From Octopus vulgaris (lineage: Eukaryota), in NCBI GenBank assembly GCA_951406725.2, contig OX597815.1, positions 168,516,001-168,580,000 of the forward strand: a stretch of 64,000 nucleotides of DNA, read 5' to 3'. Each line of letters opens with the position of its first letter. The first letter of the stretch is position 1. The notes beneath the pieces are model-generated. The model made no database searches, was not told where the DNA came from, and worked only from the letters and a program-made list of their open reading frames with translations. A program made the translations under genes and the position numbers. This document shows positions 8,382-62,489 of the stretch, in pieces.

Positions 8382-8405
8382 GTATATATATATATATATA
8401 TATAT

Positions 8406-8803
8406 ATAGCAGTATCGCCCGGCGTTGCTCAGGTTTGTAAGGGAAATAACTATATAAGCATTTTTAGAGAGTTATAGCCAAAAAATAGCAAAAAAATGCA
8501 TTAAAAATGGAAAAAAAATTATGTAAATTTTTTTTTAAATCGTTGACTCATCGTAGACATTTTTAGAGAGTTACTTCCCTTATATAATAGCGAAAAAAAT
8601 GCATTAAAATGGAAAAAAATTATGGTAAATTTTTTTTTAAATCATAGACTCATCATAGACGTGCGCTAATACCCAGAAGGGCTCGATATGAATCACGACT
8701 ATAAGATACCCGGTTTTGGTTAAACTGCACCGCAAAATGTGGGAGTAGTTAGGAATCTAAATCGTAGGAGACAGACACACAACTTCACTTTTATATATAA
8801 AGA
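8406..8803 (-). mobile_element. Non-autonomous Helitron
   Basis: The minus strand starts A|TCTTTATATATAAAAG and ends with the GC hairpin CCTGAGCAACGCCGGG...CTGCTA. It has an internal tandem duplication. A second copy with an intact CTAG end is at 37852-38235. Confidence 0.8.
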
Positions 8804-8818
8804 TATATATATATATAC

Positions 8819-16387: not shown

Positions 16388-16765
16388 TCATCATCATCAT
16401 CATCATCATCATCGTTTAGCGTCCGTTTTCCATGCTAGCATGGGTTGGATGGTTCTACTGGGGTCTGTGAAGCCAGAAGGCTTCATCAGGCCCAGTCAAA
16501 TCTGGCAGTGTTTCTACGGCTGGATGCCCTTCCTAACGCCAACCACTCCGTGAGTGTAGTGGGTGCTTTTTACGTGCCACCCGCACAGGTGCCAGACAGA
16601 GCTGGCAAACGGCCATGAACGGATGGTGCTTTTTATGTGCCACCGGCACAAGGGCCAGGCGAGGCTGGCAACGGACACGAAACGGGGCGGTGCTGGCAAC
16701 GGTCGCGAAACGGAAGGTTCTCTGACATGCCACCGGCACTGGTAACACATCTGCAATTTCCATTG
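16388..16765 (-). mobile_element. RTE-LINE 3' UTR fragment with internal ~63-bp repeats
   Basis: (GAT)n tail on the minus strand, the GGTTGGCGTTAGGAAGGGCATCCAGC block, and repeated GTGCCACCGGCAC units. The same UTR is attached to RTE ORF2 at 56471-57335. Confidence 0.8.
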
Positions 16766-30094: not shown

Positions 30095-32365
<2,271 letters not shown>

Positions 32366-36234: not shown

Positions 36235-37282
36235 TACTCACATATATATATGTATGAATACAACGTACATACATTTCCAACATTAAGCACACACACTGCA
36301 GTGTGTAACATTCCAGTTTCCATGGTAATCATATTATAATGTGTTCTCTCTCAGTCAATGCTTTAATTGGAACAACTGACAAGAAATCAACTTTTTCTAC
36401 ACCAGTAATTACCATAAATTTGATAGTAATGTCACAACAGATCCATACCACCTCTGCTGTGTAATTAGAAAGTCTATTGCCATCACAATTGTCAATAGAA
36501 TACTAGGCATATTATTTCTTGCATAGTTTCCAACGCTAATAATGCAATTTTATTTTCTGACATTATTGATTCATTTCAAAACTATGTGGTTTTGATTATA
36601 CTTTTGGTTTTTTTTATGGAAATAATAGCACAGCTTTGTAACAATTTGCATCACTGACTTGCTATAAATTAGCCTTTGTTTTATCTATATTCACCATGTA
36701 GACACAGAACTTGCAATAAATTAGCTTTTCTTTTCATGTATATTCTTCATGTAGAATCATAGAGAACACTAACCAATTAACCAACTAACAAATGTGAAAG
36801 TTTCTGTATAGACATTCAGCTTGCTAACATGACAGCTAGACCTCTTTTAACAAATTTGCTACTTTTTAAATACATATCATGCATTTTTGTCCTAGATTTT
36901 AAGATAGTATTCCTCAAAAATATACAAGATTATCATATCAAAAACGTTGCTGAAAAAAAACATTTGGCATAAACTGGGCAATTTATGCCTGTTCAAATTA
37001 CAACTAATCTTTGTAATAAGATCTGTTTCACAATGGAGTAAGTACAACATATTTAGTGCAGTGGACCTGCAAGTCACACCAAATAGATCTGATCCAACAC
37101 AACTCACACACATGACTAAACCAGATATGTGGAGAGATATGTCAGTGAGTTCCAAATTATGTCATAAGCAACGCTTCATTATCATTAACCCTTTTGTTAT
37201 CATATTTCTATTGAAATACACTTACCTTTGTTTCAATTAACTTTTAAAATAACAAATAATTTAGTAAAATAACTTTTTTGTT

Positions 37283-37697
37283 CAGTTCTATATTTTAGAG
37301 ATGAGGAATTATGTACATTATTTACATTCGATGGATATTTGTCCTCATCTTGTTTGTTGTTAACACAACGTTTCGGCTGATATACCCTCCAGCCTTCTTC
37401 AGGTGTCTTGGGAAAATTTCGAACCTGGGTTCTCATTCCTAAGGTATTTTTCAATGTTATTATTGGGCATATGGCATAGTGGTTAAGAGCACGGGCTACT
37501 AACCCCAAAATTCCAAGTTCGATTCCAAGCAGTGACCTGAACAATAATAATAATAACATCGAAGAATACCTTAGGAATAAGAACCCAGGTTCGAAATTTC
37601 CCCAAAACACCTGAAGAAGGCTAGAGGGTATATCAGCCAAAATGTTGTGTTAACAACAAACAAGATGAGGACAAATATCTGTTGAATGTAAATAATG
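37283..37697 (+). mobile_element. tRNA-headed element flanked by inverted hammerhead-bearing Penelope-like arms
   Basis: 149-bp inverted arms (37316-37464 / 37549-37697), a central tRNA-like segment at 37465-37537 with A and B boxes, and a 12-bp TSD AACT(T/C)TTTTGTT (37271-37282 / 37698-37709). Confidence 0.8.
37363..37406 (-). ncRNA. Minimal type I hammerhead ribozyme motif
   Basis: ACAC-CTGAAGA-A-GGCTG(GAGGGTATAT)CAGCC-GAAA-CGTT-GTGT: intact core with palindromic AACGTT in place of helix III. The plus-strand partner at 37607-37650 has CpG-type changes (CCGAAACG to CCAAAATG). Confidence 0.75.
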
Positions 37698-37851
37698 AAC
37701 TCTTTTGTTATTAAACCAGTGTTTGGAACAAATTAACATACAATTTTGAAAGAAGATTTAATTCAGACCCCTTTAAAACAAGAAGATTGTGTCATAGAAC
37801 CAGGAACAGTCTCAAGCAGATTGTTTATTGCTTAACTCTTTTATATAAAAA

Positions 37852-38235
37852 CTAGCAGTATCGCCCGGCGTTGCTCGGGTTTGTAAGGGAAATAACTATA
37901 AAGCATTTTTGAGAGTTATAGCAAAAAAATGCATTAAAAATGGAAAAAATATGATGGTAAATTTTTTTTTAAATCGTTGACTCATCGTAAACATTTTTAG
38001 AGAGTTACTTCCCTTATATTTAAAAAAATATGCATTAAAATGGAAAAAAAATGATGGTTAATTATTTTTAAAATCGTAGACTCATCGTAGACGCGCGCTA
38101 ATACCCAGAAGGGCTCAATATGAATCACGACTATAAGATACCAGGCTTTGGTTAAACTGCACCGCAAAATGTGGGAGTAGTTAGGAATCTAAATCGGAGT
38201 AGACAGACACACAACCTTACTTTTATATATAAAGA
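37852..38235 (-). mobile_element. Non-autonomous Helitron
   Basis: Canonical A|TC...hairpin CCCGAGCAACGCCGGG...CTAG|T on the minus strand. Near-identical to 8406-8803. Confidence 0.88.
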
Positions 38236-38733
38236 TGTATTTGATATAGATGTATAATAAAAACGGTAAAAATAAACTGTTGGAAAATGAAATGTAAAAT
38301 ACTGACTTTGTTCAGAGCAATCTAGAACAATAAAAGAATCCCTTAGTGGAAGTTGTAGAATTTTAAGAGTTTTAAAATTCTGTTTTCAATTCACTATAAA
38401 GAATTAAGCAATGAACAATACTTTCTTTATACTTCCGTAACTTTTATACAAGATATATGTTAACCACATGATATCATTTCATTTCATTGTCCACTTTCTA
38501 TGCTCGCATGAGTTAGACAGAATTTGTTGAGGTACATTTTCTATGGTCGGATGCCCTTCCTGTCACCAACCATCACCTATTTCCAAGTAATGTAATATTT
38601 CCACATGATCAGATGAGACATGTTTTCATTGGATACTGAAAATGAATGACACTATTTGTATGACTGTGACACTCATTTATAACTATCATGTGACATCAAG
38701 ACAGTAACATACACATACACATATACATATATA

Positions 38734-39410: not shown

Positions 39411-41274
39411 TTATAAATATATATATATATATATATATATGATGGGCCTCTTTCAGTTTCTGTCCACCAAATCCACCCACAAGGCTTTGGTTGGCCCAGG
39501 GCTGATAGAGAAGACACTTGCCCAAGGTACTACTGAGTAGGACTAAACCCAGAACTATGTGGTTTGGAACCAGATTTCTAACCACAAGGCTATACTTGTA
39601 TCTATTATCTTACTTACAATTTATGCATGTCAATATAAGTAAGCTCTTGTTTTTGTTTTGTTTTTTAGGATAAATTCCATCAATAATTAACGACAAGATA
39701 TATCTATTAATAATTGTAAGTAAAGTTTTGATATAATCATGTAAATAAATAAGCTACACGTGAATGACATAAATAAAATGCAGGATAAAACATTGAAATA
39801 ATCATACTAGAAAAACAACAAAAACAATCAAGAAATGTTTAGAAAACACATCATTGTTTTGTCATGATCAAAAAGAGAGAAAAATAGTGGATTAAAAACA
39901 GAAATTTTAAATCTTTGAAAATTCCACAACTTGCACTAATGGATTCTTTTATTGTTCCAGATTGCTCCAAGCAAGGTCGGTATTTTTCATTTTGTTTCCC
40001 AACAGTTTATTTTTACTGCTTTTATTATACATCTATATCAAATACATTTTTTTACAAACATTTCATTTGGAAATACTAATCTATATAATCTTCATGTTAT
40101 CGTCAAATTTTGCTCCTGCTGCATTTAACAACTTTTGTTTTTTGTTTTTATTTTCTTTTTGTTGTCTTTTTTTTTTCATTCTGACACGAGATGATGAATT
40201 TGTATTCAACATTTTACCATACATCTCTTTTATTTGAGAAGTTCAACATTCTCAGATCTGACCTAACTATTTTCAACCAAGTCTTTCTTTGAATATCTGT
40301 ATCACAAATAATCTTCACTACCAACTCTAAACCAAAGAAGCCCTCTATAAACCAAAAAAAAAAAAACTCTATGTGATTGCTCAACATGCTAGCAACAACA
40401 ACCAAATCTTCCTCACCTCAGCTTATTCTCTTAAAAATGGAAAGGCAAGTAAAATAATGTTCTCTTAGATAAACAGAGAGAAAAAAGTAAAATAGTCCAT
40501 ATGGAATGCTTTACATCATCTCTCCTGGATTAGTGCTAAACTGGGGTTAAACAGCAATAACAACAGATTTTAGGGAGGGTTTTTTTTTCCATTTTTTATT
40601 ATTCAGCATGTACCATCTGATTACATTACATTTCCAAACCAGTACCATGACCATTCCAGAAATCAGTAACCAATTGCCTTTGCTATCCATACACATCAAC
40701 ACAGCACATTTTCACTGAGATCATCAGTCATATCATCATCATCATCTTTTAACGTCCGCTTTCCATGCTAGCATGGGTTGGATGTGTGACTGAGGGAATT
40801 AATTTTGTTGACTAATAATGTCCATCTTGGTGGAGCTATGTACAAACATTAGCAGTAATACGCTTTAGGGAAATTGGCAATTTTGATCATTGATTCCACA
40901 GAAGTTCCTCTGCCAAGCGTTGTACAAGTGTCACCATTGGTCAGTGGATGAATGTTTCAGCAATACAGCACATCTATCACAATGCTTCTCAAGGTTTCAC
41001 CTATAATCCAAGACCAGGTGGCTGTGAGGTGCTATGCTTTGCCAAATGGCAATCCATGTTTAGCCCCAGATGTCTTATTTCTATATTCACCATTAACGCT
41101 TGTATCTAGAAATCATCCCTCTATTTGCTACCTGGGGACACATCATGTGTGAGTTCTATTTCCCAATTCAATCCCACTAATTTAACCCTTTAGCATTTGC
41201 ATTACTTATTTATTCACAATATTTTCAGTTAATCATTTATCATCTTGTAGCAGAAAGATTTAATGATGTCATCA

Positions 41275-58871: not shown

Positions 58872-61155
58872 GTCATTTTCTGTAAGCAAGTCTTGGACCT
58901 TCTGTGGTTCACTCTTGATCTTGACAGCAGTGTAAAAACATCAACCTTTGAGCTGCATTTTCATCTTGGGGAAAAGATGGAAGTCTGCAGACGCTAAATC
59001 TAGTGGATAGAATGGGTGTGGAAGCAATACCATGTTGTTTCTGGTGAGGAACTCACAAGGTTGGTGTCAGGGTGCATTGTCATCATGAAGAATTGGATTC
59101 TTCACATTCCACATATCCAGTTGCTTTCGTCAATGTCCTCCCTCAAACACTTCAAAATGTCATAGTAGAACTCTCGATTGATGGTCTGGCACTGGGGGAC
59201 GAATTTTTGATGCACAATACCACAAATGTTGAAAACAATGATGAGCATGCTCATGATTGAGCTGTGGCTTTTGAAGCGCCCATGCCACTCGAAACATTGA
59301 GTACAACTCATTGCTGTAAGATTGTCAATACATGCTCAATGTCTCTGTAGCAGGCTTCCGAAGTTTAACGCAAAATTTCATGTTGGCTCTTTGTTCCAAC
59401 TTCCTCTTCATGACAAAAATCGCAGACTTATGTGATCATAAAAGCAAAAATTTCACAACTCACAAAGTAAACACAGCGATGTCACTCTGCACACTTGCCT
59501 CATAAAGGTCACTGCTAGCCCTCACTGTGTGCTGCCATCTGTTGGCATGCTACAAAACTAGTCTGCGAACTTTTTGATACCACCTCATATGTAACTATAT
59601 ATATATATGTGTATACATATACTTATCTATACATATATGTATGTGTATACATATACATATCTATCTACCTATCTCTTTCTCTCTCTCTCTATAGATATAT
59701 ATATACATATACACACATGCATCTGTGTGTACGTGTAAGATACACATATAGTAGAGACACACACACGTGTGTGTATGTATACGCACATTTATGTGTGGAG
59801 TGGTGGGGTGGAGATGTCAAAATATTTATTTGCAAGAAGCTATGTATTTTCTGATCTTTATGCATTCTTGTCTTGTAACTAGCCAACTATAATAGTATAG
59901 ATTTCATTGTGCATAGACTATATATATACATACATGCATGCAAAGAAGCGCTTATTTGTGTATATACTTTTGATAACATGTGTGTGTGTGTGAAAGAGAG
60001 AGAGAATTATCTCTATGTACCCAGAACTTGAAAATATTTTTAATTTTCAATCATTAACCAGGAAATCAAAATTGTGTTAAAGAGTTATTGGCCTTGAGCT
60101 TAATGAACAAGGGAAAATGAAATTTTCGAGATGACAAGAATTCCTTAATACTGTAATTGTGACGACAACGACGACGATACTTATAATGGTGAATGTAATG
60201 ATGATGATGATGGTGGTGATGCTATATCTATCACCATGCTTTTAAATTATTTTGATTAATAAAATTGCCATATTTGTTGAGAAACAACAAATGTTTATCA
60301 TTGGTTTTTGGTGAGTTTTTCAATGAACTGGGGGTTTTTAGGGGGAGGGGGGAACCAATACCTACATGTAGAATGTTATAAACCTTGGAACCTTATGGAC
60401 AATTTGGCTATTTAGTACTTGGTAGTAACTTGAAAAGGTTTGTAGGTGTTAGTAAAAAAAAGGAAAAAAAACTTTTCCGATAAGTATTCCTGCTTTTACA
60501 TTGTATTGATCATGAAGTTTTTGAGTAAAAGAACTTTTATTGGTTACCTGATCAATAATATGGGAAAAAGTACCACAAATAGTTAACAAATTTAAGAATA
60601 AAAATTCCCATTTTCAAAAGGAAAAAAAATATTAAACACATCCACTGAAAATTTTGCAGTGGTCAATAATTGATTTAAATTTAGTACTGATATATAGTTT
60701 AAATATTTTTATATCACTTAAAAGTGAGGAAAAAAAAAAAAAGAAGTGTTTTACTATTTTTGTTGAAGGAAGAAATATAGATTACCATGAAATGAATAAT
60801 ATGTAATTTTATCCTTCAAAAACATGTGTACATATATGAAATACCTAAATAGCAAATATATTCAAATAAGAAAAGAATTTTATATGGAAATTCACAATAT
60901 ATTCATGTAAATAGTACTTTTATATAAAAACTCACAAACTAAATTATCTATTACTGGATTATGTATAAAATATATTTAAGAATAATATAAAATGCTTTCT
61001 AATCTTGTTTGACTCTGAAACAAGGCAGAATAGAATTCTCAATCTGAATGAGAAATATTTCGCTGTGCAAATACCTTTTCTAAAATTCAATCAAACTAGT
61101 ATGTGCATGTGTGTGTGTACGTGCGTGCGTGTAATACAATATTAGTTATTCTTAC

Positions 61156-62356
61156 CATATATATTCCTGTCTGTATCTTTGCTTTCATTTGCAGATATAT
61201 TTCGTCCAGAATTCCATTTGGACGATGTGTAACGATTTGTATTTTGTGATTCTGCAGCAGTTGGAGTTACATGTTTCATACGCTGTTTCTGCCAGAGTTT
61301 CAGTTCGTTAAGAATATTGGCTTTGCTTTGGTCTCTTGGTGGCACTTGGGGTGGAGACAAGGAACGTTGGTGTGTATTAGATGCATGTGTGGGTAAAGAT
61401 GCCTGGTCAGTTGCAAAAGGTTCTTGTGTATCAGTATTATATTGAAGGTGTGAGTGGCTCACCTGTCGTGATTGAAGGGGTGGCCTGTCTGCAGATCTTG
61501 TGAGACAAGGTAAACGTTGGTTGTGAGTAAACTTGTCATTAGACACAGCATTGTTTCCTACTCCAGTTCCAATAGATTGAAGACTGTTATTATTGTTATA
61601 TCGACTAGTATCGTGGTTACTATTAACCGGGGTGTTGTAATGTGTATTGCTTGAATTATAATGACTAGCTGATGTCTGATAATGAGTGTTGTGTTGATGA
61701 CCACTGCTATGCACATTGGTTGTCACGTTTGTCGCACTGTTCTGATGGCCTAAGGTAGTGTGCTGACTGCTGCCCAGTCGGCCAGGCACATTCGTTATAC
61801 CAGTGGCTGGAGTTAAGCTGCTGTTAAAGACATCCGCCGCAGTGTTGTGATGCCGATTGAAAAACTGACCATCAATATTTGGCGAAAGATTTATGTGGCC
61901 GTACTGCTCTTGTGACCCTGTGTAATTCATATTTTTTTCATCATTATAATTGTTTAATTTGTTTTCCTTACCCAAGAAAACCCCATCTTGATCTGATTGC
62001 TCAACATCAGTATTATTGTGAGAATCATCAAGTCTGTTTCGCCACAGAACGAGTTTAAGACCGGCTACAAATCTATCAAAATTCAAATAACCATTTGGTG
62101 GTGTCACTTTTCTGAGAGCATCTACAACACCAGGCGGAAGGCCTTTAACACCGTCTTCCTTCCATCGGCTTTCAATATCCAATAATCGAACATAACCACT
62201 GTGGTTTTCATCAAGAATATCGAAAAGAATTCTTAGAGAAGATACAAACTGTTTAGGGAGATCATCAGTCGTGTTACTATTTTTAAGGTTACATAAAGAA
62301 GTATTGCTGTTGATCGATTGATACTGTTGTTGATGAGAACTATCGATATGAGACAT
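61156..62356 (-). CDS. SAPCD2: First coding exon of a suppressor APC domain-containing protein 2 (SAPCD2/p42.3)-like gene
   Basis: The N-terminal block LPKQFVSSLRILFDILDENHSGYVRLLDIESRW...LPPGVVDALRKVTPPNGYLNFDRFVAGLK matches the EF-hand-like N-terminus of SAPCD2 as I recall it (human LPRAFLQSLRTLFDILD...LREIESRW...GYLTFERFVAGLR). The ATG at 62356 has A at -3. A G|GTAAG donor lies at 61156/61155, giving 400 codons + 1 nt (phase 1). The C-terminal coiled-coil exons were not found in the window. Confidence 0.88.
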
Positions 62357-62489
62357 CGTTTTGAAACCGCAAACACATAGATAATCAAATCAACTATCAA
62401 CAAGCGATAACAAAGAAACAAAAAGTAATTTCTAACGTGAAACAATGAATGAAACACGAAAAATGATAAATCAGCAGATTTTGTCGGCA

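Follow-up and report, generated by a model that had tools for sequence, protein, structure and literature searches.

The insertion at positions 37283-37697 of the window (the whole 64,000-nucleotide stretch of Octopus vulgaris DNA analyzed here) raises the question of what kind of element places a tRNA-like head between two inverted arms with hammerhead motifs. The initial annotation regarded it as a candidate SINE or Pol III retrozyme mobilized by Penelope-like elements (PLEs). RNA polymerase III (Pol III) normally makes small non-coding RNAs. As far as the available texts go, elements with Pol III heads are described as non-coding and non-autonomous, and PMC10886601 holds that their autonomous partners must use Pol II.

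Results

Structure and distribution of the insertion

The insertion comprises 415 bp and is composed of the parts listed in Table 1. The target-site duplication described earlier was recovered, as were the 149-nt inverted arms, which pair 37316-37464 with 37549-37697 at 11 mismatches; a second alignment of the same pair extended over 152 nt with 92% identity. The left arm indeed exceeds the right one by 33 nt. Alignment of copies identified it as an inverted, variable-length copy of the 3' end of the element, in line with the origin initially proposed for it, and in the window this copy matches the family consensus at 96.8% over 157 nt.

Table 1. Features of the insertion and its flanks (positions in the window)
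Feature	Position	Strand	Remarks
Left target-site duplication	37271..37282		12 bp, 11/12 matching
Inverted copy of the 3' part of the PLE pLTR	37283..37464	-	end of (TAA)n leader, ATG, hammerhead, hairpin and tail
PLE tail	37283..37315	-	33 nt; tail as defined in the available text of PMC11167929
PLE ORF codons 1-51	37284..37436	-	ATG at 37436-37434; frame open in left arm
Minimal type I hammerhead	37363..37406	-	core intact, helix III palindromic; activity predicted
tRNA-like head (5' part of the pLTR)	37465..37541	+	copy in the window begins at family position +7
A box	37472..37482	+	family position +14
B box	37517..37526	+	family position +59
(TAA/CAA)n leader	37542..37557	+	length varies among copies
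Sense arm without tail	37549..37697	+	ATG mutated (37577-37579); hammerhead core (37607-37650) mutated at 37639 and 37643
Right target-site duplication	37698..37709		

The element is a dispersed repeat with 8,044 candidates in the 2.8-Gb assembly, 40 of which were scored, and a 28-nt tail pattern gave 4,090 exact matches as opposed to none for the reversed control. Therefore, the structure of the insertion is not due to chance. From the exact-match count and a non-CpG divergence of approximately 4.5%, the family is estimated at about 10,000 copies in order of magnitude. It is old, as the loci selected by protein similarity show a mean identity of 92.4% and a best one of 96.3%, with no young copy seen among them.

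In the best 30 loci the end of the tail was fixed and the length of the inverted arm variable; the tail was located on the inverted arm in 23 of them, a minority having it on the sense arm instead. Duplications of variable length (8-18 bp) flanked 21 of 23 tail-left copies, compared to 78 of 460 mismatched flank pairs under the loose threshold, as expected from the initial annotation. A tail of 30-40 nt at one end combined with an inverted, 5'-truncated copy is the insertion pattern of PLEs in the available text of PMC8557442, and it is what was found here. Minimal hammerheads on opposite strands, 100-700 bp apart, have already been noted for truncated PLEs (PMC4209133, as far as available).

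Head and arm as the pLTR of an autonomous PLE

The autonomous PLE with reverse transcriptase (RT) and GIY-YIG domains that had been proposed to share the arm was found, and the arm turned out to be its coding start. The unit is ordered as ORF stop, head, (TAA)n, ATG, hammerhead, hairpin, tail and ORF body. Its single ORF of approximately 830 amino acids, for which the family consensus retains an open frame of 783 codons, encodes an RT followed by a C-terminal GIY-YIG domain, as in PLEs. PF00078 (RT) was matched in natural fragments, and the GIY-YIG region, to which Pfam PF01541 gave no match, was recognized by eye and by alignment to relatives. The ORF shares 38% identity with an Anolis protein of 836 amino acids, which we infer to be Poseidon_Ac.

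The head of long copies lies 23 nt behind the stop codon of the ORF. Among the first 30 tail matches along contig C1, three continue 5' of the head into coding sequence, and of 30 loci chosen with a foreign protein as query, 22 align without interruption from the ORF through the head position, while seven stop inside the ORF and one is rearranged at the head. On the other side, copies spanning the pLTR-ORF junction show the tail passing without a gap into the body of the ORF, and 90 exact tail-ORF junctions were counted. The frame opens at the ATG inside the arm, the left arm in the window translates to ORF residues 1-51, and the peptide encoded across the hammerhead matches that of a distant relative, P0004 (11/20 identical, E 5e-5). 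Since the ORF end joins the head and the tail joins the ORF body, head plus arm constitute the pLTR, arising from a partial tandem and containing a minimal hammerhead as is typical of PLEs. Direct upstream pLTR pieces were present in 13 of 30 ORF-start loci. Most upstream pLTRs begin after the head; a near-complete head directly upstream of arm and ORF was found only in L129 and L317, and partly in L310, L319 and L302. We conclude that the head almost certainly belongs to the pLTR of the autonomous element, and head, hammerhead and tail form the pLTR of a putative Poseidon-clade PLE, the clade being assigned by similarity only.

That an independent SINE or retrozyme with a tRNA head had borrowed a PLE tail, its autonomous partner lacking the head, is very improbable, even though short head-plus-arm copies outnumber ORF-attached ones by about 4:1. 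The arm is the ORF's own start, and the 22 of 30 protein-selected loci with the ORF running through the head, together with variants common to both kinds of copies, contradict the non-autonomous chimera that had initially been suggested. Neither a head-less autonomous sister family nor a second Poseidon family of this genome occurred among the top 30 protein matches, and a non-autonomous lineage whose head is absent from its partner was not found. A Pfam GIY-YIG search yielded other PLE families, mostly a young one that was also considered as partner and discarded, none of the 30 loci carrying the arm; it then served as a control for the terminator analysis below.

This young family (L037, L042 and L151-L153, on contigs C16, C17 and elsewhere) has many intact frames of 781 amino acids. 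Its terminal repeat contains tandem CCAAT-like and TGACGTC motifs and lacks an A/B box pair, which suggests transcription from a putative Pol II promoter.

A fixed 5' end at the tRNA-like head

The A and B boxes, assigned by the box consensus, were confirmed at the positions and with the tRNA spacing given initially, and they lie near a fixed 5' end. The pair occurs once in the whole unit, with copies starting 13 nt before the A box. Exact 24-mer matches, searched with a head pattern containing two degenerate positions, decreased from 3,293 at the head start to 791 at a site 39 nt before it, and then to 681 over the next 158 nt in the same direction. Survival across the 39 nt amounted to 24%, compared to 96% predicted by random truncation at the rate of the ORF. 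Twenty-five of the first 30 head matches along C1 begin 0-8 nt ahead of the pattern; no start falls at 9-169 nt, and the remaining five matches enter the ORF, three of these representing one duplicated insertion. Such a sharp 5' start at the head fits a Pol III start site, and we consider it very probable that Pol III initiates there. A TATA-like stretch approximately 25-30 nt upstream of the head start overlaps the stop codon and may be a chance occurrence.

In L310, L311, L319 and L312, which belong to 30 tail-ORF junction loci (29 distinct), ORF sequence is joined directly to head position +1 or +2, as expected if the RT reaches the 5' end of the RNA and jumps to another template. L310 and L311, both on C3, share the same junction of ORF nt 1-234 to head +1 and may constitute a small non-autonomous subfamily or result from a duplication.

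ARAGORN called no tRNA at the head, neither in the window nor in any of 30 loci, and Rfam gave no tRNA call for it; the only Rfam matches, to miRNAs, were driven by the hairpin, remained below the gathering score and were rejected as artefacts. The best-scoring tRNA was tRNA-Arg with approximately 49-51 identical positions, a weak match from a set of retrieved tRNA genes that included no tRNA-Ile, the candidate named initially. No A/B pair was present behind the ORF match in four related loci, where the 155-258 nt that follow are so short that the test is a weak one. A tRNA-like copy at L184 (C12:25267077-25270148), called Ser(ACT) by ARAGORN, adjoins a tRNA-Cys gene and has an anticodon loop resembling that of the head; it could be a Cys-derived relative bearing on the origin of the head.

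The pile-up of 5' ends might also arise without any role of Pol III, if a tRNA-derived SINE behind the ORF had merely hitch-hiked and RNase P-type cleavage, stalling of the RT or fold-back at a palindrome produced the ends. Indeed, the head begins with a GCCC..GGGC palindrome at which many copies fold back, and RNA-seq data from a related organism (three raw runs and one contig set) showed no pile-up of starts at the head. In these data both strands were represented equally and 75-80% of the reads ran into unlike flanks, which was taken as passive co-transcription and as evidence in neither direction. On the other hand, copies that lack an inverted arm (L212, L234 and L237) likewise start at +1 to +9, as do direct tandem jumps; stalling should occur on the 3' side of the structure; and both boxes are kept although no cloverleaf is recognizable. 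As the lack of T4 runs described below would be unexplained as well, we regard an origin of the ends without Pol III as improbable.

Hammerhead motifs

A hammerhead had been assigned to each arm. This holds for the left arm, whose CUGANGA/GAAA core is intact; the right arm is mutated and reads CAGCC-AAAA-TGTT, so that GAAA has lost its G and the palindrome is altered. A strict motif scan of the window accordingly recovered the left copy only. The core is present in the family majority sequence, and core plus palindrome are fully kept in 19 of 134 sense copies, 35 being without a readable match. The CUGA[A/U]GA variant is common to both arms in 26 of 29 readable loci. The predicted hairpin is flanked by the two 3' ends. 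MFE folding of a mutated copy did not recover the hammerhead monomer fold, which a minimal hammerhead would not be expected to adopt on its own.

The retrozyme interpretation was not borne out. Copies were dispersed, inverted or single, with no tandem monomer arrays bounded by hammerhead cleavage; they extend 50-83 nt beyond the predicted cleavage site, and no copy ends at it.

Absence of Pol III terminators from the sense strand

A run of four T (T4) terminates transcription by Pol III, and absence of T4 from an ORF read by Pol III was predicted before counting. The sense consensus (2,656 nt, 21.8% T) contains no T4 run at all and has an observed/expected ratio for TTT of 0.47, whereas each of 15 control ORFs had at least one TTTT and a TTT ratio of at least 0.84. 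Natural copies contained 60 T4 in 126.6 kb (0.47 per kb), and two positions carry T4 in nine and eight natural alignments, respectively. The control counts, 28 in 9.2 kb (seven ORFs that other PLEs carry in this genome), 40 in 9.1 kb (seven of eight related metagenome loci, the 285-nt L177 being left out) and 5 in 1.2 kb (host exon), come from single copies, several of other clades or hosts and none of the same clade from this genome. Depending on the model, the probability of the T4 absence was 0.038 (synonymous shuffle, the strictest of the models, under which the effect is modest), 0.004 (four-fold sites), 0.009 (base composition) or 0.0003-0.002 (control rates). G4 runs were absent from the sense consensus as well (1.1 expected), which, like the two T4-bearing positions and the lack of a same-clade control, weakens the case. 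The absence of T4 is suggestive of reading by Pol III without proving it.

The same head could, however, serve as Pol III promoter for short RNAs only, with short, tail-bearing copies and 3' pLTRs as SINE-like sources mobilized in trans and the ORF RNA made by Pol II, either through host read-through or from a Pol II promoter in the pLTR; the absence of T4 would then be due to chance or another cause. Such a division of labor accounts equally well for the step in the 5' counts, and it is consistent with the existence of sense copies with a full tail (L017, L020, L029, L212 and L214). A comparison of 51 ORF-attached with 83 head-start copies revealed the same variants and no private diagnostic site, which speaks against such a division; in its favor, CUGAAGA was commoner in short copies (23/70 vs 6/45, P=0.027, one of many columns tested). 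Divergence was 4.7-5.1% in the ORF-attached and 4.1-4.3% in the short copies, the short set being biased to good matches. From known elements, the Drosophila Penelope pLTR with its LINE-like internal promoter (PMC2377424) and the limit that Pol III processivity sets to length according to Kojima (PMC10886601), each as given in the available text, are in its favor. Against it stand the lack of T4 across the whole 2.66 kb, the existence of head-arm-ORF junction copies and the requirement of the anole Poseidon template for ORF sequence beyond the RT start sites (PMC11167929, available part), which short copies lack. Taken together, we consider this division rather unlikely, while giving it appreciable weight.

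Discussion

A model for transcription and integration

We favor, with moderate confidence, a model in which a captured tRNA-type promoter drives an RNA from head to ORF, and the short inverted copies come about when the RT primes internally at the hairpin of the tail. Whether Pol III itself makes the coding RNA is nearly balanced in our judgment, leaning slightly to the negative. The same reserve applies to the full form of the model, to which we grant a little less than an even chance: an autonomous coding retrotransposon transcribed end to end by Pol III over approximately 2.7 kb, purged of T4, translated without a cap and yielding SINE-like copies by short stops. The small number of loci with a near-complete head ahead of arm and ORF, and the age of the copies, count against the model.

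As suggested by the 5' ends of copies, the RNA would begin at head +1 and, in a tandem source, would run on into the ORF, to which junction copies and the absence of T4 point. In the anole Poseidon, according to the available text of PMC11167929, reverse transcription starts internally at two sites in the stem-loop at the ORF start, which delimit the tail; cutting and extension affect both strands of the DNA, and the substrate is uncleaved RNA. By analogy, the RT-GIY-YIG protein of the octopus element might cut with a stagger of about 12 bp and, with uncleaved RNA as template, start cDNA internally at either of two sites that border the tail, and the tail end is likely to be an RT start site. 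Priming at the first hairpin would copy only the 5' approximately 270 nt and give SINE-like copies, and priming at a downstream hairpin would give long, 5'-truncated ones. Inverted arms, one with and one without a tail, would form by head-to-head joining of two cDNAs, each made from one of the cut strands. The short form behaves like a SINE, with a Pol III-type 5' end and a PLE-made insertion, and short copies may act as source genes of their own. For making inverted copies, the hammerhead is probably not needed.

The weakest step of the model is translation of an uncapped RNA, which in the 2.7-kb Pol III reading might proceed from the (UAA/CAA)n leader or after hammerhead cleavage. Cleavage, however, would remove the in-frame ATG, which precedes the predicted site. 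Ribozyme-dependent, cap-independent translation is described for some viruses in the available text of PMC13725137.

Relation to known elements

With Poseidon_Ac of Anolis (Frangieh 2024, PMC11167929) and Penelope of D. virilis (PMC2377424), in the parts available, the element shares a single ORF with RT followed by GIY-YIG, an ORF start within the pLTR over a minimal hammerhead, an optional tail of 30-40 nt and AT-rich targets, and like them it forms partial tandems and inverted, 5'-truncated copies (PMC8557442, available part). It differs by the tRNA-like A/B-box head right after the stop codon, by the start of most head copies exactly there and by a sense strand free of T4; the Penelope pLTR promoter, in the accessible text of PMC2377424, further involves a DPE and an intron.

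The SINE-like repeats SM-alpha and Sj-alpha of Schistosoma have the same succession of Pol III promoter and hammerhead, but are described in the available part of PMC6765202 as non-coding tandem repeats released by cleavage, whereas here the element is a coding PLE whose copies cross the cleavage site. TRIMp3 elements (Cassandra, Helenus and Ajax; PMC10886601, available part) likewise carry a small-RNA-derived Pol III promoter in their terminal repeat, probably from a SINE insertion; these are non-autonomous LTR elements, in contrast to the pLTR of an autonomous element described here. Non-LTR retrozymes of animals (PMC7229834; bioRxiv 10.64898/2026.07.22.740005) likewise consist of short units related to PLE pLTRs, with a type I hammerhead. 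They form tandem monomer arrays that give rise to circular RNAs, unlike the octopus copies, and the available portions of these sources mention no tRNA head. With tRNA-derived SINEs (SINE2) the short form has in common the A/B-box head, the fixed 5' end, a unit of approximately 270 nt and thousands of dispersed copies with duplications; it departs from them in that the coding 5' end of a PLE supplies body and tail, its insertions take the form of inverted repeats and the autonomous element has the same head.

A PLE with a tRNA head was not found in full-text searches of the literature (including PMC6962438, PMC13282606, PMC8967140 and PMC7229834), and a name could exist in Repbase, Dfam or SINEBase. 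The element is a genuine high-copy feature, apparently a variant of Poseidon-type PLEs. If the model is true, a coding PLE with a Pol III head and a terminator-free strand would be a counter-example to the confinement of such heads to non-coding elements and would show that a SINE-like family can arise directly from an autonomous element, no chimera being required. Owing to the fixed 5' end, thousands of copies read out the poorly understood insertion of PLEs, with its two RT starts, two cDNAs and template jumps. Moreover, the cassette of Pol III promoter, ribozyme and RT start is compact and readily accessible to the in vitro system already established for Poseidon. In automated annotation, the family would probably be reported as two separate entries, one a tRNA SINE and the other a Penelope.

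Neighboring features in the window

Beside the element, a repeat at 37820-38419 has 22-nt inverted ends (37820-37841 and 38398-38419) and an internal 100-bp duplication; it matches 8397-8815 at 89% and, inverted, 39884-40054, and has the appearance of a DNA transposon of the non-autonomous kind. At 30099-31503, a (TA)n array extends over 1.4 kb; tandem units of 62 bp and 55 bp follow at 31673-32268 and recur at 16562-16681, all of this being part of a common host repeat. An open frame of 415 codons on the minus strand at 61142-62389 encodes an SAPC2 N-terminal EF-hand-like domain (PF25825, E 5e-38) and is probably an exon of a host SAPCD2-like gene.
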